Shown piece by piece: positions 13,073 through 29,456 of a DNA stretch of 64,000 nucleotides. The DNA lies in contig DAIDJN010000056.1 in assembly GCA_027451365.1 (NCBI GenBank), forward strand, positions 98,924 to 162,923. Reading direction: 5' to 3'. A model generated the notes under the pieces. That model saw only the letters and a list, made by a program, of their open reading frames with translations. It searched no databases and had not been told where the DNA came from. Each line of letters opens with the position of its first letter. The stretch's first letter is position 1. Both the position numbers and the translations under genes were made by a program. Source of the DNA: Phycisphaerales bacterium. GTDB lineage: Bacteria; Planctomycetota; Phycisphaerae; WQYP01.

Positions 13073-14092
13073 ATGGCTTCTGTTCGTGAAATAGCCAAAC
13101 AGCTCGGTGTCTCCGCGGCCACCGTGTCCCGTGCCATGAACAATCATCCGTTGGTGGCCGAAGATGTGCGGCAACGCGTCATTGTGGCCATGAATCGCAG
13201 TCGCTATGTGCCCACGGTCGGTCGGCGCGAAACTATGAACATCGCTTTTGCGTATACTGGTGTTGCCTCCATCGGCAGCCCGTTCGACGCCGCCCTGATG
13301 CAAGGCATGAGCGACCGCATGGAACAGTGCGGATTCGACCTGATGGTTCTTGACCTCCGCCGCGCCATGTTGCCCCGGGAAAACTATACCCAGATGTTTC
13401 TTCGGAAGGGCATTCGTGCAGCGGTTTTGCGTACCACGGCGGACACTATGGATATCTGTCGGCAGATTGCCGCGGAGCGCTTTCCGGCAATGGTGGTGGG
13501 GTATCATTTTGACGAACCGGAAGTGAATTACATTTACAGCAACTCTTATGCCGGCAGTTGCGAAGCGATGAGCCACCTGGTGGACCTTGGCCATACGCGT
13601 ATCGCCATTTCCCTGCACGTGGTAGACGATTCCGACCACACCGATCGTCTGAACGCATGGAAATATGTCATGAAGCAGAATAAGCTCACGATGCCGGATA
13701 AATTCATCATTCGCGCCCCGGCCAGCCTGGAGGGCGGTGCCCAGTTAATTCGCCGCATTGCCGGCATGGTTCCACGGCCCACCGCTGTATATATTGCCGA
13801 CCCGCTGGTGGCGGTGGGGGCAATGGCCGAGGCTCGCCAGATGGGCTGGGAAATTCCGCGCGATCTGTCCATCGTTGGATTTGACGACAGTGAACTGCGT
13901 TATATGGTCTATCCCAAACTGACCGCGGTCTGTCAGGATGCTCGCGCCGTCGGGCAGGAAGCCTTTGAATTAATTAATCGACTGCTGGGCGTCAGCGGAG
14001 ATCAGGCGACCGAAACCGTGTTTCGCCGCACTTTGGCGACCCATTTTGAAGTAAACGGTTCTACGGCTGCACCGGGGAAATCGTCTTTGTAA
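13073..14092 (+). CDS. LacI family transcriptional regulator
   Basis: N-terminal HTH MASVREIAKQLGVSAATVSRAMN followed by a periplasmic-binding-protein-like sugar-binding core; GGAG RBS. Confidence 0.9.
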   Translation: MASVREIAKQLGVSAATVSRAMNNHPLVAEDVRQRVIVAMNRSRYVPTVGRRETMNIAFAYTGVASIGSPFDAALMQGMSDRMEQCGFDLMVLDLRRAMLPRENYTQMFLRKGIRAAVLRTTADTMDICRQIAAERFPAMVVGYHFDEPEVNYIYSNSYAGSCEAMSHLVDLGHTRIAISLHVVDDSDHTDRLNAWKYVMKQNKLTMPDKFIIRAPASLEGGAQLIRRIAGMVPRPTAVYIADPLVAVGAMAEARQMGWEIPRDLSIVGFDDSELRYMVYPKLTAVCQDARAVGQEAFELINRLLGVSGDQATETVFRRTLATHFEVNGSTAAPGKSSL

Positions 14093-14170
14093 ATAAGCGT
14101 ATATGTGCAACGTACCTGTGTCGGGTGCGTGGCAATTCTATAGGTTGGTCTATCGTCGAAGGAGATGCAG

Positions 14171-14899
14171 ATGACTGAGAAATTTGGAAATAACGCAAAA
14201 CAGGCAATTCATGGAGGATTGGGTTTGTCGCTGGCTGTCGCGGCAGTGCTGGCGATCGGTGCCGGTGCGGGCGCGGCGAAGGCGGGCACGATAACTTACG
14301 GCCTGCAGTTCGCACCCAGCGGTGATGGAACATTCGAAAGCTGGTCAACTTACGGTTCCAACATAACCGGCGTGGAGGCCAACAATCCGCCCACGTTCAA
14401 TTCGTCGGATAACGGAGTGACCTTCACACTCGGAACAGCTACCCTTAAATTTACGGGCGGCCAAAATTACAGCACCGGTTCGGCATTGAACCAGTCATTT
14501 TACTATATGACGTCCAGTACTTCAGTACTTGCTGCCGATTTTACAGGCTTGAATGCCGGGGACACAATTGATTTTCAATTTCTTGAGAGCTTGCAGCCTT
14601 TTTCGCCAACTGTCAAGGTAGTCGGCTCCACTTCCGGGTCATTGTCTAAATCCATCGCGTCGAGCCCGCATGGAAGCGCTTTTGTTGATTTAGGCTCCTT
14701 AACAGGCAACAACAGCTATACGATTACATCGTCGCTTAACCCCGGTGGCGGGGAGGGTGACGTTTCTGCTGCCCTTATCACCATTACAAGCGGATCGATT
14801 TCCGCCGTGCCGCAACCCGCTTCCATGGGCCTGCTTGGGCTTGGTGGCTTGGGATGTATCGCCCTGGGCTTGATTGCCCGGCGGCGGATGAGACTTTGA
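14171..14899 (+). CDS. PEP-CTERM sorting domain protein (secreted, exosortase-type anchor)
   Basis: Signal peptide; C-terminus ...SAVPQPASMGLLGLGGLGCIALGLIARRRMRL (PEP-like motif, TM helix, Arg cluster). It shares TYGLQFAP, (T/N)AGDT(I/V)D(F/M)QF(L/I)ES and ALITIT motifs with the next gene. Confidence 0.8.
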   Translation: MTEKFGNNAKQAIHGGLGLSLAVAAVLAIGAGAGAAKAGTITYGLQFAPSGDGTFESWSTYGSNITGVEANNPPTFNSSDNGVTFTLGTATLKFTGGQNYSTGSALNQSFYYMTSSTSVLAADFTGLNAGDTIDFQFLESLQPFSPTVKVVGSTSGSLSKSIASSPHGSAFVDLGSLTGNNSYTITSSLNPGGGEGDVSAALITITSGSISAVPQPASMGLLGLGGLGCIALGLIARRRMRL

Positions 14900-15106
14900 A
14901 CGAATTGCTGAAACGAGCGGCGCCAGTAAGCGGCCGTCTCTTTCCCGGGTGAGGGAGAAGTATGGATGCGTACCCGCCCACATTACCGCGCTTTCCCAAT
15001 CACCATGGGTGAAGCCGGGATAACCTGTTGAAAACGGGTGCGGCGGTGTTCGCCGCACTTTATCCGCCATTTGTTCCGGCGGATCATTGTAAATCAGGAG
15101 ATATAT

Positions 15107-15808
15107 ATGAATTTCCATGCTTCTATTCGTGTGGCAGCCGTTCCGATGATCGGATTGGCGGCGATTTTCGCTCTGGCCGGGACCGCGACGGCCACGCCGG
15201 TGACTTACGGCCTGCAGTTCGCACCGACCAATTACACGGCCTACACAGGTTGGGCGTCCGGTGTGACGGTGGCGCCGTTTACGCCGCCGCCATTCAACGG
15301 CGTGGCGACCACGACCTATGCACTCGGATCGGCTTCCTTTGCCATCACTGGCAACAACTATAACATTCAGAATGGCATAACGGGCGGTACGCCAACCACT
15401 GATATTTCCTGGTTGAACCGCGCCTTCTTTTTTGGCAATGGGGGCACCCCTTTAACCGCCACACTTTCCGGCCTTTCCGCCGGTGATACGGTGGATATGC
15501 AGTTCATTGAAAGCTTTCAGACGGGCAATGAACCGCAGGTGGCCATTTCGCCCGCATCCGGAAACACCCAGCCAACGGCCATTGCGACCGATACCAGCTT
15601 CACGGATGCAGGCACTTATACCGGCGCGACAAGCTACAATCTGACTTTTACCAATGCCGCTGGCGGTGCTGGCGAATTCGATCTTTCCGGCGCGCTGATC
15701 ACCATTACGCCCGCGGCAGCGCCCGAACCGGCTTCGCTGGGATTGTTCGCATTGGCGGCAACGGGCCTGCTGTTGCTGAAACGTCGGCAGACCGGCTCCG
15801 CAAGGTAA
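15107..15808 (+). CDS. PEP-CTERM sorting domain protein (tandem paralog of 14171..14899)
   Basis: AGGAG RBS before ATG at 15107; signal peptide; C-terminus AAPEPASLGLFALAATGLLLLKRRQTGSAR. Confidence 0.8.
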   Translation: MNFHASIRVAAVPMIGLAAIFALAGTATATPVTYGLQFAPTNYTAYTGWASGVTVAPFTPPPFNGVATTTYALGSASFAITGNNYNIQNGITGGTPTTDISWLNRAFFFGNGGTPLTATLSGLSAGDTVDMQFIESFQTGNEPQVAISPASGNTQPTAIATDTSFTDAGTYTGATSYNLTFTNAAGGAGEFDLSGALITITPAAAPEPASLGLFALAATGLLLLKRRQTGSAR

Positions 15809-15889
15809 GGGTGCCGGTGCGCCGTGGCGGAAACCAGACTGAATCGGAAATAAAAGGCGGTCGGGGCGGAACGTCCCAAGGAGTCTGTC

Positions 15890-16654
15890 ATGCGGAAGCA
15901 AGCCTTTACTCTTGTGGAACTGCTTGTGGTGATTTCCATCATTGCGATCCTGATTTCGCTGCTGCTGCCGGCGCTTAGCCGGGCGCGCATGGCGGCGGAC
16001 AGTATCGCCTGTGAATCCAATCTGCGGCAGATACAGGTCGGCGTGATGGAGTACGCCAATGCCTTTTCCGGACATTTGCCGTCAACGTTTTTTGGTCCGC
16101 AGGGCTGGCAAGACGCTGTCTTCGCCTATTTGTATAACAAAGGGACGCTGGTGCCGCGCAACAGTTTGTCGCCCACGCTGGAATCGCAGTTTGAACAGGC
16201 CTTCTGGTGTCCATCAAGAAATGTCAATATGACAAATCCATGGGGACTCAATTATGCGGCCAATCTGGTGGTGTTCCCGGTGCCCGGCACGGTTGGCCCG
16301 GCGCGCGGCCTTCTGCCACTGGTTAATGATCCATCCGAGGTGATCGCGGTCGGAGATGCCAATCAGGCGTTTCCGGATGGCGGCGCCTGGTACACGTTTG
16401 ACTGGGCGGTGTGGAACAATCCGGCAGTTTATGCGCCCACAACCAATGTCCCGATCGGGGGATATTACGGAACCGGTAATACCGATACATTCAACGGCAA
16501 CACGATCGGTTCCACTGGCCTTCGATACCGCCATTTTTCAACCGGCGTAAACAATGGTTTTGCCAATGTGGTCTTTTTTGATGGCCACGTGCAGTCGATT
16601 GCGGCATCGGGGAATTCCACAGGGCTTTTTGTTTATAACATTGTTCCAAACTAG
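15890..16654 (+). CDS. DUF1559 (H-X9-DG) protein with prepilin-type N-terminal cleavage/methylation domain
   Basis: MRKQAFTLVELLVVISIIAILISLLLPAL (class III signal, pseudopilin-like); C-terminal NVVFFDGHVQSI H-X9-DG motif; AAGGAG RBS. Confidence 0.85.
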   Translation: MRKQAFTLVELLVVISIIAILISLLLPALSRARMAADSIACESNLRQIQVGVMEYANAFSGHLPSTFFGPQGWQDAVFAYLYNKGTLVPRNSLSPTLESQFEQAFWCPSRNVNMTNPWGLNYAANLVVFPVPGTVGPARGLLPLVNDPSEVIAVGDANQAFPDGGAWYTFDWAVWNNPAVYAPTTNVPIGGYYGTGNTDTFNGNTIGSTGLRYRHFSTGVNNGFANVVFFDGHVQSIAASGNSTGLFVYNIVPN

Positions 16655-16738
16655 CCGATTTTCATTGTGGCACAGGTACCCTTTTGGCCCGGCTGTGTTC
16701 GCCGGTGATTGACAGGAACTATTTTTCTGAGGTTTTTA

Positions 16739-18535
16739 ATGTTGAATCTGAAATGTGTCCTCCGGACGGTGTCTGGTCTCTTCCTGGCTGGTCTGCTGGC
16801 GGCGCCGGTTGCCGCGGCGCCGGTCAAGGTGCAACTGGTAAAATCGGGCAATGGCTTTGAACTGTTGCGCGGCGGTAAGCCCTATTTTGTGAAGGGTGCC
16901 GGCGGCGGCTTTTCTTTGGCCGCACTTCACGCCGCTGGTGGCAATTCCGGACGCACCTGGGGTGCAGATGGCATTCAGAACCAGCTTGATACGGCCGCGA
17001 AACTCCACATGACCATGCTGGTCGGCTTCTGGCTGGGACATCCGGGAGATGGTTTTAACTATCACAATGCCGTTGCAGTGCGGGCGCAATATGAACAATG
17101 CAAAAAATATGTGCTGGAATACCGCAACGATCCCGCCGTGCTGGCCTGGGGCATTGGCAACGAAATGGAAAATGGTTATGACCATAAAATTCTTTGGAAG
17201 GCTGTGGAACAAATTGCCAAAATGTGTCATCGCCTGGATCCCAACCATCCCACAGTGACGGTGGTGGCGGAAATTGGCGGCCACAAAGTTCAGAAAATAA
17301 ATAAATATTGCCCCGATATTGATATAATCGGAATTAACAGTTATGGCGGGGGGGCTTCGCTTTACCAGCGCTATCTGAAGGCTGGTGGTGTCAAGCCGTA
17401 TCTGATTACCGAATTCGGACCTCCGGGAACGTGGGAAATCGGTCGTGATAATATTGGTCTGCCGGTGGAGGAAACCAGCTCGCAAAAAGCGCTTGCGTAC
17501 GCGGCGACCTATCAGCACAGCGTGCTGAACACCCACGGGATGTGTTTAGGTTCTTATGCATTTACATGGGGCTGGAAGGTGGAAGCAACGCCCACCTGGT
17601 ACGGGTTGATTCTGCCCGATGGCCGACGGCTGGGCGGGGTGGATTACCTCCAGCATTTCTGGACCGGCCACTGGCCTGCCCACCTGTGTCCGGTCATAAA
17701 ATCCATCACAATGGATGGCGGCGACAAACTGGCACCCGGCAGTGTGCTGCACGCCCGCGTGGTGGCTGTCCAGCCCGGAGGCGGCGCACTAAGTTATCAT
17801 TGGATATTGCGACGCGATATTTCCAATCTGAATATTGCCGGCGGCCTTGGGGGGGCCATGCCGACGGCATATAAAAAAGCCATCGCGCAAAACGGAGCGG
17901 ATCATGTCTCCGTTAAGATGCCGCAAAACGGGGGCTATTATCGATTGTTTTGTTATGTATATAACACACACAATGGCGCAGCGGTGGGTAACCTGCCCCT
18001 TCAGGACACCGCCAAACAGCGTCCCATGCGCTCTCCGGTCGCGAAAATCCCCCTGGTTCTGTTGGGCAATGGGGCCAATTCACCCTTCGTCCCGGCCGGC
18101 TGGATGGGCGATTATTCCGCCATCGGATATGACGGCAATTGCCCGACAGATCCGCATTCGGGAAAATCCTGCGTGAAGATTTCATTCAAACAATCCAACG
18201 GCTGGGGCGGCATCGCCTGGCAGGATCCCGCCAACGACTGGGGTAAAACCTATGGCGGCTTGAATTTGAAGAAGGCTAAAGCACTAAGCTTCTGGGCGCG
18301 GGGGAAAGTCGGCGGTGAATCGGTGACATTCGGCGTGGGATTAATCGGCTCTGACCAGCCATACCATGATACCGTCCATGTGTCCCGCAAAGTCACACTT
18401 GGCACGCACTGGAAGAAGTATACTATTGATCTGAAAGGTAAAAACTTGTCCCGCGTCATCACCGGCTTTTACTGGACCGGTGGGGCCAATGGTGCCCCAT
18501 TTGCTTTTTATCTTTCGAATATCAAGTATCAGTAA
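16739..18535 (+). CDS. secreted clan GH-A (GH5/GH2-like TIM barrel) glycoside hydrolase with a C-terminal about 150 aa beta-sandwich (CBM-like) domain
   Basis: The track start at 16709 is TTG; ATG at 16739 has a GAGG RBS. Signal peptide; LAWGIGNEMEN (acid/base Glu context) and YLITEFGPPG (nucleophile Glu context) are typical of clan GH-A. The C-terminal 150 aa are homologous to the downstream stand-alone ORF. Confidence 0.7.
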   Translation: MLNLKCVLRTVSGLFLAGLLAAPVAAAPVKVQLVKSGNGFELLRGGKPYFVKGAGGGFSLAALHAAGGNSGRTWGADGIQNQLDTAAKLHMTMLVGFWLGHPGDGFNYHNAVAVRAQYEQCKKYVLEYRNDPAVLAWGIGNEMENGYDHKILWKAVEQIAKMCHRLDPNHPTVTVVAEIGGHKVQKINKYCPDIDIIGINSYGGGASLYQRYLKAGGVKPYLITEFGPPGTWEIGRDNIGLPVEETSSQKALAYAATYQHSVLNTHGMCLGSYAFTWGWKVEATPTWYGLILPDGRRLGGVDYLQHFWTGHWPAHLCPVIKSITMDGGDKLAPGSVLHARVVAVQPGGGALSYHWILRRDISNLNIAGGLGGAMPTAYKKAIAQNGADHVSVKMPQNGGYYRLFCYVYNTHNGAAVGNLPLQDTAKQRPMRSPVAKIPLVLLGNGANSPFVPAGWMGDYSAIGYDGNCPTDPHSGKSCVKISFKQSNGWGGIAWQDPANDWGKTYGGLNLKKAKALSFWARGKVGGESVTFGVGLIGSDQPYHDTVHVSRKVTLGTHWKKYTIDLKGKNLSRVITGFYWTGGANGAPFAFYLSNIKYQ

Positions 18536-18605
18536 GGCCGCGGATTATGCCGCATCGGTACGTCGAATGTCCGGATCGTGAACTGGCTTGTATAAGGACG
18601 CAATC

Positions 18606-19238
18606 ATGTTGAGAACTATTTCCAATCAAATTTGTGGCGGTCTTTGGCTGCTGATTCTGCTGGTGGCAATCGTTTGTGCGATGGGCAACCATCGGGTTGC
18701 CATCGCGGCCGATGCCACGCCGTCAGGTGCTGCCAAAGCCGCATTGCCACTGGTGATTTACAGCGACGGCAACGGGAATTCGGGCTACATACCCAGCGGC
18801 TGGATGGGCGATACCGGTAACATTCATTACAAGGGGCATTGCACCACCGCCAACCCACCCAAGGGAACCAACTGTATCCGCATTAAATATGCCTCCGGCA
18901 CCGGCTGGGGCGGCATTGTATGGCAAAATCCGGCCAACAACTGGGGCGATGCCCAGGGCGGCTTCGACCTGACCGGTGCCAAAACGCTTTCCTTCTGGGC
19001 AAAAGCCAAACATGCGGGCCTGAAGGTGACTTTCGGTTTTGGTGTTATCGGTGCCGGGAAAACCTACAGCGACTCTTCGAAGGGGTCCAGAAAAATCACC
19101 CTGACAACAAAATGGAAAAAATACACTATCCGGCTTAAGGGAAAAGATCTGACCCGCATCGTTACCGGATTTTTCTTTTCAGCCGGTGCCCCAGGCAAGC
19201 CCTTTACGTTTTATCTGGACAATATTGAATACAAATAA
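18606..19238 (+). CDS. stand-alone secreted paralog of the GH C-terminal domain (putative carbohydrate-binding module protein)
   Basis: ATG at 18606 with an AAGGA RBS (the track start at 18588 is TTG). Signal/TM, then a domain alignable residue-by-residue with 16739..18535 residues about 440-598 (GWMGD, GWGGI.WQ.PAN.WG, LSFWA.(G/A)K, VTFG.G.IG, KKYTI.LKGK.L.R..TGF, FTFYL.NI.Y). Confidence 0.6.
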   Translation: MLRTISNQICGGLWLLILLVAIVCAMGNHRVAIAADATPSGAAKAALPLVIYSDGNGNSGYIPSGWMGDTGNIHYKGHCTTANPPKGTNCIRIKYASGTGWGGIVWQNPANNWGDAQGGFDLTGAKTLSFWAKAKHAGLKVTFGFGVIGAGKTYSDSSKGSRKITLTTKWKKYTIRLKGKDLTRIVTGFFFSAGAPGKPFTFYLDNIEYK

Positions 19239-19357
19239 CCGGCGAATTTCCAGCGCATGGTATGCATCATTTCCCCACGGAAAAGGCCGTCGGGGTGAAC
19301 TTCCCGTTTAAGAGGATGCCGCGGGAAAAAGAGCCTTCCGAAGCGACAGGAGTCCGT

Positions 19358-20965
19358 ATGCGTCAATATCTGCGAAATCTGATGGTGTCGGCGGGGGCGA
19401 TGGCCCTGGGGCTGATTCTGACGGCGGGGAATTCCACCGCGGCGCACATCGCGCATGGTAAACTGCTTTTTAAATTGAATTTCACTGGGCCGATTGGCTC
19501 TCTTCCATCGCAAAAGATATGGAAATATGACACGGGCTGGGACCCCAATTGCGGCACGTATTACATAGACTCGGCTAAAACCATGGGAGTGGTGGCTGAC
19601 TCGCACGCCCAGAGCGGCAAGGCTCTGGCGATTCGCGTGGTGCCTTATCCCGGCAAGCCGGGCGCATTCCTTTCGGCGCGCATTACCACGTTTGCCAATC
19701 CTGCGTATCATGTCAAATATGGATATATAGAGGCACGTATAAAGGTTCCTGGCGGACCTGATGGTGCCGGTTCAGGATCGTGGCCGGCATTCTGGCTTCT
19801 GGGGACGAATTTTCCAAAAGTCGGCTGGCCCCAGTGCGGCGAGATTGACACCATGGAAAGCGCCGGCAATCGGCCCGGCACCGTTACCGGCACCATACAC
19901 GGTCCGGGCACAGGTGCTGGCGGCCCTTATTCCCTGCCCGCGGGAAAGGAATTCTGGCAGCATTACCATACATTCGCCGTTCAGTGGAGTCCGCTGGAAA
20001 TTGAGTTCCTTTGCGATGGTCATGTGTATGCCCTTTTTACCCCGGCGGACCAGAACAAGAATAGCTGGGTGTTTGACCATCCATTTTATATTATTCTCAA
20101 TGTGGCCGAGGGCGGGGCGTATGGCGGCGCTCCCAATGGAAATGCCATTTATCCGCAGACCATGCTCGTGGACTGGATTAAGGCCTATGCGTGGAAACTT
20201 GCTGTTCCCACCGCTGTTCACGCACGCGCGATTGGCAATGGTGGCGTTCATGTGTCGTGGATGGATACGGCCTTTGATGAAAGCGGTTTTGTTCTGCAGC
20301 GATCGACATCGCGCGATTTTAGCGAGGGTGTTCATACTCGGAAGCTTTCCGCATTGGCGGCCGGTTATACCGATTCGGCGCTGCCAGCAGATCAGAAGTG
20401 TTACTATCGAATAGCCGCAGTGGAAGGAAAGACACGGTCCGCATGGTCCGCAGTCGCGGCCGTCAATCCAGTTGCGGGAACTCCGTCAGCGGGCGGTCAG
20501 GTTTCCGATCATCCGGTTCTGGCTATTAATTGCGGCGGCCCGGCGGGAGATGGATTTATAGCGGATCGTTATCACTCAAAATCGGCGCACGACGCGCCCG
20601 ATAACCATCCGATTGCGCTGGCGCATGGCCTGCCAGCCATTCCGCAAAGCGTGTATCAATCCAATCGGTACGGTGGCTTTACGTACAGACTGCCCCACTT
20701 AAAGCCGCACGGCCATTATGTTCTGGAACTGAATTTTTCGGAAGGCTATTGGCGGGCACCACGTAAGCGGCTTTTTGCGGTATTCGCCAATGGCGTCCCG
20801 ATTTTAAATGACTTTGACATTTATGCCGCCGCCGGCGGACGGTTCAAGGCGGTGAATCGCAGGTTTCATCTGCGAGCCAATGCGCAGGGGCAGATTGATT
20901 TGCGGTTTGTATCGCAGCGCGACAATGCCCAAGTCAATGGCATTGAAGTGTATGCGGTTAAATAG
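19358..20965 (+). CDS. GH16 beta-glucanase (laminarinase-type), fibronectin type III domain, malectin-like domain
   Basis: ATG at 19358 with an AGGAG RBS; signal peptide. GH16 catalytic motif GEIDTME (E-x-D-x-x-E) with WPAFWLLG nearby; central FN3-like segment; C-terminal malectin/di-glucose-binding-like domain (...YRLPHLKPHGHYVLELNFSE...NGIEVYAVK). Confidence 0.85.
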   Translation: MRQYLRNLMVSAGAMALGLILTAGNSTAAHIAHGKLLFKLNFTGPIGSLPSQKIWKYDTGWDPNCGTYYIDSAKTMGVVADSHAQSGKALAIRVVPYPGKPGAFLSARITTFANPAYHVKYGYIEARIKVPGGPDGAGSGSWPAFWLLGTNFPKVGWPQCGEIDTMESAGNRPGTVTGTIHGPGTGAGGPYSLPAGKEFWQHYHTFAVQWSPLEIEFLCDGHVYALFTPADQNKNSWVFDHPFYIILNVAEGGAYGGAPNGNAIYPQTMLVDWIKAYAWKLAVPTAVHARAIGNGGVHVSWMDTAFDESGFVLQRSTSRDFSEGVHTRKLSALAAGYTDSALPADQKCYYRIAAVEGKTRSAWSAVAAVNPVAGTPSAGGQVSDHPVLAINCGGPAGDGFIADRYHSKSAHDAPDNHPIALAHGLPAIPQSVYQSNRYGGFTYRLPHLKPHGHYVLELNFSEGYWRAPRKRLFAVFANGVPILNDFDIYAAAGGRFKAVNRRFHLRANAQGQIDLRFVSQRDNAQVNGIEVYAVK

Positions 20966-21220
20966 GGCGGATTGCCAGCTTCCTTCAGGTGCTATCCGAC
21001 CACTCGCCAAAGACCCCCTGAGCGTTGTATGGAATGTCGGCGCGGTCATTGTCGCGGCAAAGCAATCGGCTTTTGGGAAAGCTTGCCCGCCGGAATTCCT
21101 TCCATTTAATCAATTTGTGCGCTATGTTTTTCATTTCCGATCAAAACCGGCGCACCCTTGAATCTTGTGAATTTATTATGCGGTTGACGCCTGATAACGG
21201 GCGCGTTACACCTTTTGTTT

Positions 21221-22441
21221 ATGGAAAATATACATGAAAAGCTGGCGGTCTGGCGAACCGGGCGGCATCTGCCCGGTCGCTGGAGCGGGATTGGCATTGC
21301 GGTCGTTTTGGTTCTTTTAATCGGTTGTCCGCGGCGCGGCGGAGCGGCTGTTCCCCAGAAAATCGCTGTGATACCAGCCGCAAAGACTGTGGCCAATATA
21401 TCCGCCAGACGGGCCGAGTGGTGGAAAATCTGGCACGAAAAGATGATGATCGATTATGAATTGCAGCGGCGCTTGGGGCCGGGGCAGCGGGCGCTGTTGT
21501 CCGCGGCATCCAGGCGGCGGGTGGCCGCCAAGGTCATTCCCATGACCTGGCGAGCTTACAAACTGAATCTTCAATTACTTAAGATCAGTTCTTCCCAACA
21601 GCGTCCGTTTGTACACGTTCTTCTACGGGAAGACCTGCTGATATTGAGCGTGCTTGGTGATGCAAAGGCCAAGGCGATATTGAACATAAATGCCGCATCG
21701 GCCAATCCTGCCAAAGCACAGGACGGGCGCGTGGTGCTTCTAATTTATCAATTGTATCTGGCCTGGCATCATGAAAAGAAGGTCTTCGCGATTTTGCGGG
21801 AATTTGAAAAGCTCGCCCTTGCACATCCAACAAGCGTTGATATCAGCACTACTCTTTCTTCCATTACCAACAGCCCGCCGCGATTGCCCACGCAGGCTGA
21901 AAGGCGATTTGTGCGGCACGTGCTTTTGAATGTGATGCCGAAAACTCTCGCGGCCCGCATGCTGGCGCAAGACAATGCCTCGCGGCAAAAGCTGCTGGCC
22001 ATGGTGGGTAAGCCTTTGAATCTGCAAACCCGATCGTTGACGGGTGACCGGTTGAATACCGCCCGCTGGCGCGGCAGAGTGCTGGTCGTATGCGTCTGGT
22101 TTCGCCTGAACCAGCTTGTCGCGATGCAGCCTTTTTACGATAAATTTCATGCCCGCGGATTGTCCATGGTCGGCATTCCAATGTGGCAGAATTTTGAACA
22201 GATCGGGCAGACCATGATGACCCATCCGCATATAACCTGGCTTCAGACGCGCATTATCCATAAGGTCGCAGGTGACGGACTGCTATTCGGTGCGATTCCA
22301 TTTGTGAATGTCGGTAATCGTTGGCAGGACTATGAAATAATTTGCGACAGGCGAGGCATCGTACGATTTGTGGTTTTCCACGGCAGCGGCGGTATGCCTG
22401 CGGAGGACATAAAGAAACTGCTGGCGGACAGGCCGCATTGA
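21221..22441 (+). CDS. membrane-anchored protein with a C-terminal TlpA-like thioredoxin fold lacking the CXXC motif
   Basis: N-terminal TM IGIAVVLVLLIGC; the C-terminal 120 aa have redoxin topology (GRVLVVCVWF-RLNQ...IPFVNVGNRWQD...) but WCxxC is replaced by VWFRLNQ. The track start at 21215 is TTG; ATG at 21221. Confidence 0.5.
   Translation: MENIHEKLAVWRTGRHLPGRWSGIGIAVVLVLLIGCPRRGGAAVPQKIAVIPAAKTVANISARRAEWWKIWHEKMMIDYELQRRLGPGQRALLSAASRRRVAAKVIPMTWRAYKLNLQLLKISSSQQRPFVHVLLREDLLILSVLGDAKAKAILNINAASANPAKAQDGRVVLLIYQLYLAWHHEKKVFAILREFEKLALAHPTSVDISTTLSSITNSPPRLPTQAERRFVRHVLLNVMPKTLAARMLAQDNASRQKLLAMVGKPLNLQTRSLTGDRLNTARWRGRVLVVCVWFRLNQLVAMQPFYDKFHARGLSMVGIPMWQNFEQIGQTMMTHPHITWLQTRIIHKVAGDGLLFGAIPFVNVGNRWQDYEIICDRRGIVRFVVFHGSGGMPAEDIKKLLADRPH
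22040..22441 (+). repeat. direct repeat copy 1 (3' end of the TlpA-like gene)
   Basis: About 400 bp with roughly 85-90% nucleotide identity (by eye) to 33500..33904, same orientation, 11.4 kb apart. Confidence 0.8.
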
Positions 22442-22877
22442 TACGGCATCCCTGACTTTCGGGACCATCTGGACAGGGTCCGGCATAGCGCAGTCCGATA
22501 TCACTGCCGCCTTTTGCAATTTTTTAAATAGCGTTGTGGGCCTTGGTGGATTCAACTGATTCCATCACATCCACAGTAGATTGACTTGGGGCCGAATGTC
22601 CCGCGCGTCATGCGCCATGCCGCAACTTGCCAACGTTCAGTATTGTTCCATTTTATACCACGACCGATAAATCCGGCTTCTTCCTTGGATTTGCCCAGCG
22701 GTTGACCGGCTCAGGCGGATAAATTCACGTCCGATTTTGGGCCGACCGATAAACAGGACGGGTGGTATCTCGTTATAGAGACTGCCTGATACGTATCGCT
22801 GGTGCGCCGCCCTGGCGGATTCAGTGTCAAAGCCGAATGAAAGGGGATAATTCGGCTGGCCAAACAGGAGCAGTTGC

Positions 22878-23825
22878 ATGCCGACGAAATTAAAATCTGC
22901 GGAATGGCGCACACCCTGGCGCAATACTTGGGGCGTTGCCCCTTCTATGCGTGCCTTGGGCCCGCGGCGTGTTCAGGGTCGTGGTTTTACCCTGGTGGAA
23001 CTTCTTGTGGTGATTTCCATCATTGCTCTTTTAATAGCCATCCTCTTACCTGCGCTGGCCAGAGCCAAAGCATTGGCGTATAGCATTCAATGTTCCGCGA
23101 ATCTTCGTGCCATCGGTCAGATCAATGCCGAGTATGTGAGCACATACAGCGGCAGTCTGCCTTTTGGCATGGATACCTACGGTCCCGGACCGAATGAATA
23201 TGATTCACTGCTTTTCAGTTATTATATTGATGTTCAACCGAACATCTTCTGGAACAACAGGGGGTCCAATAAGGACTGGGAACAAAAATATGTCGCGTTC
23301 TTCTGGTGTCCATCTCGCGTATTGGCCATGCAGAATCCTTGGGGCATGAATTATGCGTGCAACCCAAATTATTTTGTTGCCAACAAAGGCGGAAATACCA
23401 CTTTTCGCGATTCCGATGTGGCTGACCCGGCTGAAGCCGCAGGCGTAGGAGATGCAAATCAGGCCTTCGGAGATGGTGGATCCTGGATGACGTTTGACTG
23501 GCAGCAGACCGGAGCAGCGTCACCATATATTAATGATCAGAGCTATCTTGTTCCGCCGAATGGCCTTTCAGGCGGTGATACGGCCAATGTGGATGCGGGA
23601 CCCAATTTTGTATTTGGCACGGGGCTTCGTTATCGCCACAATCTATTTGCGGCGAACAGTGGGAATGGAAATGTCGTGTTCCTGGACGATCACGTGGAAA
23701 GTCTGAATTTTAATGACAACACCCCAGGCGCGCCCGTAGGAGCCGCAGGTACGATCGGTAATGATTTAACATTAACTATTCAAAACATTTACAATCCATT
23801 GTTGCCTGCCAGCACGCAACAGTGA
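22878..23825 (+). CDS. DUF1559 (H-X9-DG) protein with prepilin-type N-terminal domain (paralog of 15890..16654)
   Basis: AGGAG RBS before ATG at 22878; GFTLVELLVVISIIALLIAILLPAL; C-terminal NVVFLDDHVESL H-X9-DG motif; shared FFWCPSR and NPWG(L/M)NYA motifs. Confidence 0.85.
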   Translation: MPTKLKSAEWRTPWRNTWGVAPSMRALGPRRVQGRGFTLVELLVVISIIALLIAILLPALARAKALAYSIQCSANLRAIGQINAEYVSTYSGSLPFGMDTYGPGPNEYDSLLFSYYIDVQPNIFWNNRGSNKDWEQKYVAFFWCPSRVLAMQNPWGMNYACNPNYFVANKGGNTTFRDSDVADPAEAAGVGDANQAFGDGGSWMTFDWQQTGAASPYINDQSYLVPPNGLSGGDTANVDAGPNFVFGTGLRYRHNLFAANSGNGNVVFLDDHVESLNFNDNTPGAPVGAAGTIGNDLTLTIQNIYNPLLPASTQQ

Positions 23826-28445: not shown

Positions 28446-29456
28446 TTATCGCGGCGCATATTCATTGCGAAGACAGCGAACCTTACCCTGTTTATTTATC
28501 ACCAGATGCGCTATCTGGATATAAGACCGGCGGCCGAATTGGGTGAAATAAAACAGCACGCATTGTCCCTTTTGCGTGATGACCGCCGGATGGTGTCCTG
28601 GTGCGTTATCCAGCGTTCGCCTTCCGGTGGCGCCAGCCAGCACGGTGGCGTTGTATACCCAGTGTCCGGTGCCGGATTTTGATCGGTAAACTCGCAGGCC
28701 ACGACCCGCGTCGGTAATCAGCCAGTAGGCATGATGCCATCGCCATACAAAGGGCGCTTCCTGACTGGGCCACGCCACAACCTGCCGGTCATCATGCCAG
28801 TGATTCAGATGATCTGATTCCGCCATCCAGATGTGTGATCCATGATGTTCGTCCTTGTACCACATGTACCATTTTCCATGAATTTTCCACAATGTGGGGT
28901 CAATACAACGGGCCGAAGACAGCGGCACTGTGGAAATAAATTTCCAGTCGATGCCGTTTTTGCTGGCAAAATGTTCAATCGTGGCACGGCCCGTCCAGCT
29001 GGTAAAAATGCCGTGCACTTTCACCACAAACATTTGCAGTACTCCCTTTTGCCAGGCAAAACAGGGGGCCCACCACGTCACGTGCGCTTTCATCGGATCG
29101 CCGAGTCCATGCGGACCCTGACATATGCCCCGATACTTCCAGTGAATACCGTCCGGCGATGTCGCAATTCCAATGGCCGTGCCGTGGCACCACAATACGC
29201 CTGGCGGATGGCGCATGGCCGCCCGCCGCTGTGTGTAATACATCCACCATTGCCCTTTGTGATTTGTCCCTTTGTTTGGCATCCATACCACAAATGGGTC
29301 CGCCGCCCCATGCCAGACCGGATCGTCAAACAGCGGTGCCGGCGCTTTGGAAACCTGTATCCAGGCGGGAGGCGCCGCCGGTGCTTCCGCCGGGATCAGA
29401 CCTGTCAGCAGAACCATTAACAGTGCGGCGGCCGCATAACTCACGGTGGTCTGCAT
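28446..29456 (-). CDS. secreted five-bladed beta-propeller glycoside hydrolase (GH43/GH32-like)
   Basis: AAGGAG RBS; signal peptide; DPFVVW near the N-terminus (candidate catalytic Asp) and W-rich blade repeats typical of the GH43 fold. The family assignment is tentative. Confidence 0.5.
   Translation of the reverse strand: MQTTVSYAAAALLMVLLTGLIPAEAPAAPPAWIQVSKAPAPLFDDPVWHGAADPFVVWMPNKGTNHKGQWWMYYTQRRAAMRHPPGVLWCHGTAIGIATSPDGIHWKYRGICQGPHGLGDPMKAHVTWWAPCFAWQKGVLQMFVVKVHGIFTSWTGRATIEHFASKNGIDWKFISTVPLSSARCIDPTLWKIHGKWYMWYKDEHHGSHIWMAESDHLNHWHDDRQVVAWPSQEAPFVWRWHHAYWLITDAGRGLRVYRSKSGTGHWVYNATVLAGATGRRTLDNAPGHHPAVITQKGQCVLFYFTQFGRRSYIQIAHLVINKQGKVRCLRNEYAPR

Follow-up and report, generated by a model that had tools for sequence, protein, structure and literature searches.

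A single-domain protein with a predicted signal peptide, paralogue of the C-terminal module of its GH158 neighbor, as a probable beta-glucan-binding helper in a planctomycete locus

In Bacteroides, beta-1,3-glucan loci that encode glycoside hydrolase family 158 (GH158) and GH16 enzymes under one regulator also encode non-catalytic surface glycan-binding proteins (SGBPs), which are thought to capture substrate for the enzymes (PMC7157763). Two GH158 structures are available, BuGH158 (PDB entry 6pal) and GH158(Pro) (9oro). The latter uses catalytic residues Glu143 and Glu229 together with Lys283, and its processive tunnel is closed by a salt bridge between Arg104 and Asp382 (PMC13195107). A further precedent is Uk-C, a predicted beta-sandwich of ~150 amino acids (aa) located C-terminal to a GH17 (clan GH-A) beta-1,3-glucanase of Vibrio vulnificus, which binds laminarin and barley beta-glucan via three Trp in a Trp-lined groove and whose removal lowers kcat/Km ~3-fold (PMC9026390). 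Here, we analyzed a stretch of 64,000 nucleotides (nt; the window) from a Planctomycetota lineage known from a metagenome-assembled genome. It contains a gene for a GH158 enzyme that ends in an additional domain, hereafter X, followed directly by a gene for a 210-aa protein with a single X domain. Sequence comparisons and structure models indicate that the 210-aa protein is probably a secreted, non-catalytic helper that binds beta-glucan through one jelly roll of the carbohydrate-binding module (CBM) type, paralogous to the C-terminal module of the enzyme.

Residues of the enzyme are numbered by its 608-aa open reading frame (ORF; 16709-18535), which gives 598 aa from the ATG at 16739, and those of the free protein by the 216-aa ORF at 18588-19238, of which 210 aa are probably translated. 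The features of the pair are:

16739..18535, + strand: GH158-X gene, 598 aa, with signal peptide, GH158 TIM barrel, Ig-like domain and C-terminal X domain
16793..18004, + strand: predicted GH158 catalytic barrel and Ig-like domain, aa 29-432, by alignment to 9oro
17162-17164, + strand: predicted catalytic Glu152, aligned with Glu143 of GH158(Pro)
17411-17413, + strand: predicted catalytic Glu235, aligned with Glu229 of GH158(Pro)
18047..18532, + strand: fused X domain copy, aa 447-608, a CBM-like beta-sandwich
18606..19238, + strand: free-standing X gene, 210 aa (ORF finder start TTG 18588), 100% identical at 210 aa to database protein P0001
18606..18707, + strand: predicted Sec signal peptide of the free protein, inferred from sequence, with cleavage near AIA/AD
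18744..19235, + strand: X domain of the free protein, aa 53-216

A sequence search of the PDB matched aa 29-432 of the enzyme to the solved GH158 beta-1,3-glucanases, with E = 3.2e-98 for GH158(Pro) and 5.8e-52 for BuGH158. Both align with it through the catalytic barrel and the Ig-like domain, over 400 residues. Pfam returned only a weak match to a GH2 TIM barrel. The start at ATG 16739 is the one used by the database orthologue P0123. Glu143, Glu229, and Lys283 of GH158(Pro) correspond to conserved E152, E235, and K290, and the retaining catalytic pair is present, with the acid/base Glu in an NE motif and the nucleophile Glu in TEFGP. By sequence, the hydrolase is a GH158 beta-1,3-glucanase of clan GH-A, which makes more specific the clan assignment given in a first-pass annotation of this DNA. 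The partners of the tunnel salt bridge, Arg104 and Asp382, are both replaced by Gly (aa 113 and 382; 17045-17047 and 17852-17854 region). Because these residues are not conserved, we do not assume processivity for the window enzyme, and its branch of GH158 may be gated by a mechanism different from that of GH158(Pro).

The solved GH158 enzymes end after the Ig-like domain (407-424 aa), whereas the chain of the window enzyme runs ~165 aa further, and this extra part is X. An AlphaFold2 model of the whole hydrolase (mean predicted local distance difference test, pLDDT, 87.8; predicted template modelling score 0.74) consists of the barrel, the Ig-like domain, and a separate beta-sandwich. In the 598-aa numbering, alternating strands and helices occupy 30-310, an all-beta region 319-423, and a separate all-beta domain 439-597. 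We found no description of X in either paper on these two structures, and a term search of the GH158(Pro) paper turned up neither a CBM nor a C-terminal domain (PMC13195107).

Comparing the 608-aa and 216-aa ORFs with BLASTP gave a single alignment, residues 424-608 against 30-216, in which 92 of 187 positions are identical (49%) and 67% are positive, with 2 gaps and E = 1e-60. This pairwise check bears out the residue-by-residue correspondence claimed in the first-pass annotation, which had placed both segments correctly and whose quoted motifs (GWMGD, GWGGI.WQ.PAN.WG, LSFWA, VTFG, KKYTI.LKGK, TGF, and FTFYL.NI.Y) are all present. A C-terminal segment is indeed shared, but it comprises ~165 aa (fused aa 447-608) rather than the ~150 first estimated. 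On this evidence the two segments are true paralogues. Since the tree described below unites this lineage's free and fused copies in a single clade (100% bootstrap support), one copy arose from the other.

Translation of the free protein probably starts at ATG 18606, which has AAGGA 8 nt upstream and agrees with the 210-aa length of P0001. The N-terminus is a hydrophobic, signal-like segment when read from the sequence by eye (MLRTISNQICGGLWLLILLVAIVCAMGNHRVAIA, followed by AD), in keeping with the earlier description of a copy without a catalytic domain but with a signal peptide of its own. The AlphaFold2 model of the protein has pLDDT <60 for aa 1-40. Export signals can be read from the sequences of all three proteins: GH158-X, the free X protein, and the GH16 protein encoded downstream. 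The free protein in the window has no lipobox Cys and is thus not an SGBP-type lipoprotein. Among 85 stand-alone family members, 77 have an N-terminal hydrophobic segment without a lipobox, and a crude regular expression found a lipobox-like motif in only 5. The free protein resembles SGBPs in being encoded beside a GH158 and a GH16 beta-1,3-glucanase. However, SGBPs are lipoproteins that work with SusC/SusD, whereas the window offers neither a lipobox nor a SusC/D pair, and X belongs to a different fold family. Another difference from SGBPs is its paralogy to a module of the neighboring enzyme.

Structure prediction, one of the checks suggested with the first-pass annotation, gave X as an all-beta jelly roll whose best structural matches in a fold search are all CBMs: CBM8, CBM30, CBM11, and CBM4. 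A profile of X matches CBM4-2 of the Rhodothermus marinus xylanase over its C-terminal half (E = 1.4e-4), weak Pfam CBM_11 matches occur in 14 of 43 X members (best E = 3.5e-5), and the X copies of some GH158-X-X proteins exceed the CBM_11 threshold (39 bits vs 27). Invariant residues of the family, in free-copy numbering, are W107, W112, Q113, P115, W119, D162, and W176. The family motif is G-W-G-G-[IV]-x-W-Q-N-P-A-N-N-W-G, and its invariant aromatics and amides are kept in free and fused copies. As a separate, confidently modelled beta-sandwich that recurs in fusions to GH158 and GH17, X has the character of a CBM, that is, a discrete and independently folding module within carbohydrate-active enzymes.

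By sequence and model, X is a divergent relative of the CBM11, CBM30, and CBM4 jelly-roll modules, and the window copies are CBM11-like. We do not file them as CBM11, or in any other CBM family, because they fall under each family's own threshold. These three are type B beta-jelly-roll CBMs, grouped in the Pfam clan of CBM_11, CBM30, and CBM_4_9, and the window copies match none of them at threshold. X has only 15-23% identity to solved CBMs, the GWGG-x-WQNPANNWG motif is specific to the X family, and the enzyme partners of X are beta-1,3-glucanases, whereas those of CBM11, CBM30, and CBM4 are cellulases, lichenases, and xylanases. By analogy, Uk-C is the best experimental precedent for the behaviour proposed for the fused X. 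The idea that X is the Uk-C domain itself was rejected: similarity to residues 451-615 is weak (hhalign probability 29%, E = 5.8e-4, 78 columns), which makes Uk-C a remote relative at most. Moreover, no free-standing paralogue is reported for Uk-C (PMC9026390), whereas X has one.

The free X protein has 501 homologues in a word-indexed search, mostly 'hypothetical proteins' of 190-215 aa, from Planctomycetota/Phycisphaerae, Armatimonadota (Capsulimonas), Verrucomicrobiota, Lentisphaerota, and Omnitrophota, the last with forms of ~375 aa. The fused X alone retrieved only 3 proteins, a limit of the word index, and this query was replaced by full-length and profile searches. Of 1.84 billion representative sequences, 3309 matched the X profile at E<=1e-3, and 868 did so at E<=1e-30; individual proteins carry 1-8 copies. 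The ~600-aa GH158-X architecture is represented by >100 orthologue clusters at >95% coverage, and forms of ~780-990 aa exist as well. We took an architecture census of the best 150 profile hits. X stood alone as a single copy in 40 of these and as tandem copies in 17. X was joined to GH158 in 26 and to GH17 in 17, and Pfam confirmed GH17 in 7/10 sampled multi-domain X proteins. The census also contained 11 membrane proteins with a zinc ribbon, transmembrane segments, and X, one fusion of an extracytoplasmic function (ECF) sigma factor, a transmembrane segment, and X, and 38 proteins with unassigned other regions. A further 20 X proteins with unassigned regions mostly gave no Pfam match. X also occurs alongside other sorting signals, such as a type IX secretion system (T9SS) tail in P0305 and dockerin/cohesin in P0263. 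These architectures identify X, at the sequence level, as a mobile module, with two distinct families of beta-1,3-glucanase, GH158 and GH17, as its identifiable enzyme partners. Because of these partners, we favor beta-1,3-glucan as the ligand of X, and this is our main argument for it.

The surroundings of the pair provide further context. A run of genes on the + strand spans 13073-23825 of the window and includes, besides the pair:

13073..14092, + strand: LacI-family transcription regulator, first gene of the locus (Pfam LacI E = 1e-11, Peripla_BP_3 E = 1.6e-27)
14165..14899, + strand: PEP-CTERM-type surface protein 1 (weak NCBIfam PEP_NF038129 match)
15107..15808, + strand: PEP-CTERM protein 2, ORF finder start 15038 (TIGR02595 PEP_CTERM 23.2 bits, cutoff 16; Pfam PEP-CTERM E = 0.0018)
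15890..16654, + strand: prepilin-type N-terminal methylation/DUF1559-like (pseudopilin-like) protein (Pfam N_methyl E = 1.5e-6, weak SBP_bac_10)
19358..20965, + strand: GH16 (laminarinase-type)-FN3-malectin protein, ORF from 19262 (database orthologue 535 aa)
21215-22441, + strand: 408-aa ORF, downstream of the GH16 gene and upstream of the second pilin-like gene
22878..23825, + strand: prepilin-type/DUF1559-like protein 2, distal end of the locus (Pfam N_methyl E = 1.1e-6; our own pilin-like hidden Markov model E = 2e-91)

The upstream LacI regulator noted at first pass is thereby confirmed. The downstream neighbor, previously described as GH16-FN3-malectin, has GH16 and malectin domains by Pfam (E = 1.4e-21 and 5.7e-17), but fn3 is a 'faint' match in its orthologues. 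Its GH16 domain is closest in the PDB to bacterial laminarinases and beta-1,3-glucanases (9vmv, E = 5e-50; 3atg, 2hyk, 3azx). The 408-aa ORF matched no Pfam or NCBIfam model, and it is kept, at 406 aa, in the same position on the two other contigs of the species (L006 and L007). Promoter and terminator scans of the locus gave the same counts as shuffled controls, and a search for a LacI operator found no 8+8 palindrome with <=1 mismatch in the intergenic regions of the locus or of the related contig L016. Housekeeping or unrelated genes flank the run, among them lipoamide dehydrogenase, flotillin, multicopper oxidase, and an outer-membrane efflux protein.

The locus had been called 'PUL-like', after polysaccharide utilisation loci, with a predicted substrate of beta-1,3/1,6-glucan. 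The beta-1,3 part stands, given LacI, GH158, and GH16. On the other hand, Pfam domains of the ORFs in 2183-31208 include no SusC/SusD pair, TonB-dependent receptor, or other transporter, and a PUL in the Bacteroidota sense is defined by neighboring genes for a SusC-like TonB-dependent transporter and a SusD-like protein; 'PUL-like' thus fits only loosely. The same ORFs yielded no beta-1,6-glucanase, which leaves the beta-1,6 (pustulan) component of the earlier proposal unsupported. The only other glycoside-hydrolase signal there is a sub-threshold GH43 match in an ORF at 28449-29456, outside the locus. Hence, on sequence evidence, it is well supported that the locus is a LacI-linked beta-1,3-glucan degradation unit and not a PUL in the Bacteroidota sense.

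Given this setting, we propose that X binds chains of beta-1,3-glucan, such as those of laminarin, curdlan, or fungal walls, with the invariant Trp/Gln/Asn motif probably lining the binding cleft. The fused copy would target the GH158 catalytic domain to its substrate. The free copy, whose expression LacI probably controls along with that of GH158-X and the GH16 laminarinase, would add binding capacity, either by retaining polymer and released oligosaccharides near the cell or by loosening insoluble or triple-helical glucan. Its role would equal that of the second tandem CBM in the GH158-X-X enzymes of other lineages. The second X is interchangeable in this respect, being found as a separate gene (in trans) or in the same polypeptide (in cis). 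Both enzymes of the locus are of beta-1,3-specific types, GH158 (PMC13195107, PMC7157763) and GH16 laminarinase.

Several observations weigh against this proposal. The ligand is assigned from fold and guilt by association, and the nearest structural relatives (CBM8, CBM30, CBM11, and CBM4-2) bind beta-1,4-glucans, mixed-linkage glucans, or xylan. None of the Pfam and NCBIfam models scanned reaches its threshold on the window copies. Neither matches CBM11 (PF03425, gathering threshold 27 bits), and the free X reaches 14.4 bits (E = 0.051) against CBM_4_9 (PF02018, threshold 25.9 bits). In 35 of the 79 genomes classified below, GH158-X stands alone, and the free copy is therefore dispensable in many lineages. 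Some free X genes lie away from any glucanase, for example in Capsulimonas (L004). Finally, co-transcription is assumed from the spacing of same-strand genes, with gaps of 70 nt between GH158-X and free X and 119 nt between free X and the GH16 gene.

The binding preferences of these structural relatives, together with the sequence-level matches to CBM_11 and CBM4-2, would fit a different ligand: mixed-linkage beta-1,3-1,4 or beta-1,4 glucan, which CBM11 and CBM30 bind, a beta-1,6-branched glucan, or a heteroglycan. The free X might then capture another component of a composite substrate, for instance the cell wall of a fungus or alga, and Uk-C of the V. vulnificus GH17 enzyme binds laminarin and barley beta-glucan alike (PMC9026390). 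We consider a different ligand unlikely, if the least unlikely of the alternatives. X sits overwhelmingly on GH158 and GH17, and GH16_3-like laminarinases accompany its free copy. Each of these families acts on beta-1,3-glucan, and the locus contains no enzyme specific for beta-1,4 or mixed linkages.

Membrane proteins in the census raise another possibility. In P0307, P0308, P0311, P0316, and P0319, an N-terminal CxxC...CxxC zinc ribbon is followed by 2-3 transmembrane helices, a Pro/Ala-rich linker, and a C-terminal X, and the sigma-factor part of the ECF fusion (P0310) is confirmed by Pfam. In P0310 and the zinc-ribbon proteins X is C-terminal and presumably extracytoplasmic, which suggests that it is also used as a glycan sensor. 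With such arrangements in 11 zinc-ribbon proteins of the top 150 and in P0310, and with ECF sigma genes near the cassette in L012 and L013, the free X could be a signalling or sensing component that binds glucan or oligosaccharide and reports, rather than a helper in degradation. This role seems improbable for the window protein, which has no transmembrane anchor or output domain and for which we identified no receptor as a partner. Regulation of the locus falls to a cytoplasmic protein of the LacI type, which responds to imported sugar, and single-chain GH158-X-X proteins, as equivalents of the pair, suggest that X acts on the substrate, beside the enzyme. The glucan-binding helper is our preferred interpretation.

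We next consider how the gene pair recurs. Same-species contigs L006 and L007 have the identical arrangement, and on five further metagenome contigs (L010, L012-L015) a GH158-X gene of 603-621 aa is followed directly by an X gene of 191-212 aa. The closest other relatives, L001-L003 (70% identity), have LacI, X, and GH16/malectin at the same chromosomal position, beside the lipoamide dehydrogenase gene, and are without GH158-X, the pilin-like gene, and the PEP-CTERM genes. Since L001-L003 and L016 lack the genes of 14165-18535, either the window lineage acquired a ~4.4-kb block or the relative lost it. A GH3-CBM6 gene lies nearby in L001-L003/L016.

For a wider view, one genome per species was scanned, and the 79 loci returned were classified with tblastn and ORF tracing. 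The scan relied on a single peptide pattern and retained its 80 best hits; it is therefore biased, and its numbers are not frequencies. Within it, GH158-X with a separate X ORF directly downstream accounts for 17/79 loci, GH158-X-X(-X) in one ORF for 4, and GH158-X only for 35. The contig ends within 900 nt downstream of GH158-X in another 5, and GH158 and X occupy different ORFs, with apparent frameshifts, in 4. The remaining 14 have X without GH158 in the locus, including 4 arrays of three consecutive X genes. These arrays of stand-alone X genes occur in Verrucomicrobiota and Lentisphaerota (L039 5331-7456, L080 3635-6208, L093 3801-6423, L094 1773-3746), downstream of a gene 28-32% identical to the GH158 catalytic region that probably belongs to another clan GH-A family.

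These loci also bear on whether the free X gene is merely a decaying, functionless leftover of gene fission or partial duplication, as the many genomes with GH158-X and no second X (35/79) might suggest. Such decay is very improbable. Purifying selection is evident in both copies, with ratios of nonsynonymous to synonymous substitution (dN/dS) of 0.04-0.16 for free X, like the 0.09-0.16 of fused X, including pairs with unsaturated dS. The gene is an intact ORF with a predicted signal peptide of its own and an invariant aromatic motif, and it is preceded by a ribosome-binding-site-like sequence. It is kept in 17/79 species genomes and also in relatives that lost or never had GH158-X.

To place the duplication, we built a neighbor-joining tree of 54 X domains with 100 bootstraps. 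The clade that joins both kinds of copy in the window's Planctomycetota lineage (100%) has a counterpart in Armatimonadota (99%). Inside each lineage, free and fused copies form mirror-image sub-clades of moderate support (57-59%, and 99% for the Armatimonadota fused copies). A single ancient duplication shared by all phyla is unsupported, the all-free and all-fused groupings each having 0% bootstrap. A recent local duplication or gene conversion was also rejected: the window's fused X is nearer to the free X of L010 (56%) than to its own neighbor (49%), and the separate sub-clades of free and fused copies contradict it as well. The within-locus duplication proposed at first pass thus holds insofar as the copies are true paralogues, but it is old and conserved (the pair occurs in 17/79 species genomes) and not peculiar to this locus. 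The simplest interpretation of the tree is that an extra X arose independently in at least two phyla, Planctomycetota and Armatimonadota, followed by vertical inheritance. Concerted evolution within lineages after one older duplication is an alternative.

Within the species, identity between the window and L006 is >98% over the locus. Their GH158-X genes differ at 62 nucleotides, 46 of which are concentrated in one 200-nt tract of 80% identity. This hypervariable tract, at ~18040-18240, corresponds to the N-terminal third of the fused X domain. Gene conversion from the neighboring free X does not explain it (informative sites 16/11/17). The tract may represent a segment imported from another allele or a loop region that is diversifying.

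Pilin-like genes are a recurrent part of the neighborhood. In 13/47 loci with enough upstream DNA, GH158-X is immediately preceded on its strand by a prepilin/DUF1559-like gene, and a LacI gene lies <=5 kb upstream of GH158-X in 15/47 related loci. The LacI/pseudopilin/GH158-X/X cassette is common to Planctomycetota and Armatimonadota. Loci with the prepilin/DUF1559-like gene are the window and L012-L014, L025, L027, L036, L049-L051, L055, L059, L069, L070, L085, L086, and L092. LacI usually precedes this gene, and in Armatimonadota a major facilitator superfamily transporter is present too.

The 13/47 association, the PEP-CTERM surface proteins of the locus, a sub-threshold match to the NCBIfam 'choice-of-anchor J' model (NF038128; 22 bits, E = 1.5e-4, cutoff 30 bits), and the binding of dextran by planctomycete fibres (PMC5394234) could be taken to mean that X is an anchoring or protein-protein module. 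In that case X would attach enzymes to the cell's own envelope polymer or to a pilus-like fibre, with the free copy filling or controlling the docking sites instead of binding substrate. We give this little credence. All strong fold matches are to substrate-binding CBMs, many GH158-X loci have no pilin-like gene at all, and the presence of up to 8 tandem X copies and of varied sorting signals (the T9SS tail of P0305 and the dockerin/cohesin of P0263) argues that X itself is not the anchor.

A more speculative extension keeps X as the glucan-binding domain. The cassette of LacI, prepilin-like DUF1559 protein, GH158-X, and free X, here with two PEP-CTERM proteins, might constitute a SusC/D-independent glycan-capture system, in which the free X, soluble or fibre-associated, could hand beta-1,3-glucan to a pilus-like fibre of substrate-specific pseudopilin. 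We regard this as a long shot. If true, it would provide a molecular identity for the polysaccharide-binding fibres on planctomycete cells (PMC5394234).

Literature searches found no description of the X family or of a recurrent GH158-X/X gene pair, nor of X as a standard module of GH158 and GH17 in Armatimonadota and in bacteria of the Planctomycetes-Verrucomicrobia-Chlamydiae (PVC) group. Free-standing CBM proteins and SGBPs are already known kinds of protein, and current concepts are unchanged by the proposed helper. Judged from its architectures, X appears to be a standard targeting module of GH158 and many GH17 enzymes in Planctomycetota, Verrucomicrobiota, Armatimonadota, and Lentisphaerota, phyla that are increasingly implicated in the turnover of laminarin and fungal glucan. 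Should X prove to bind carbohydrate, it would probably merit a CBM family of its own or form a deep branch of CBM11, and would offer better annotation of carbohydrate-active enzymes in the phyla that carry it and a new beta-glucan probe. That a second X has been acquired repeatedly, either as a secreted protein of its own or as a tandem domain of the enzyme, represents a natural experiment on selection for CBM multivalency or dosage.

The two tandem PEP-CTERM proteins, encoded between LacI and the pilin-like gene, are also paralogues of each other (39% identity, E = 3e-30), with bodies of ~200 aa that have no Pfam family. The window and L006 do not align over ~14295-14802, within the first PEP-CTERM gene, and this gene is thus strain-variable.

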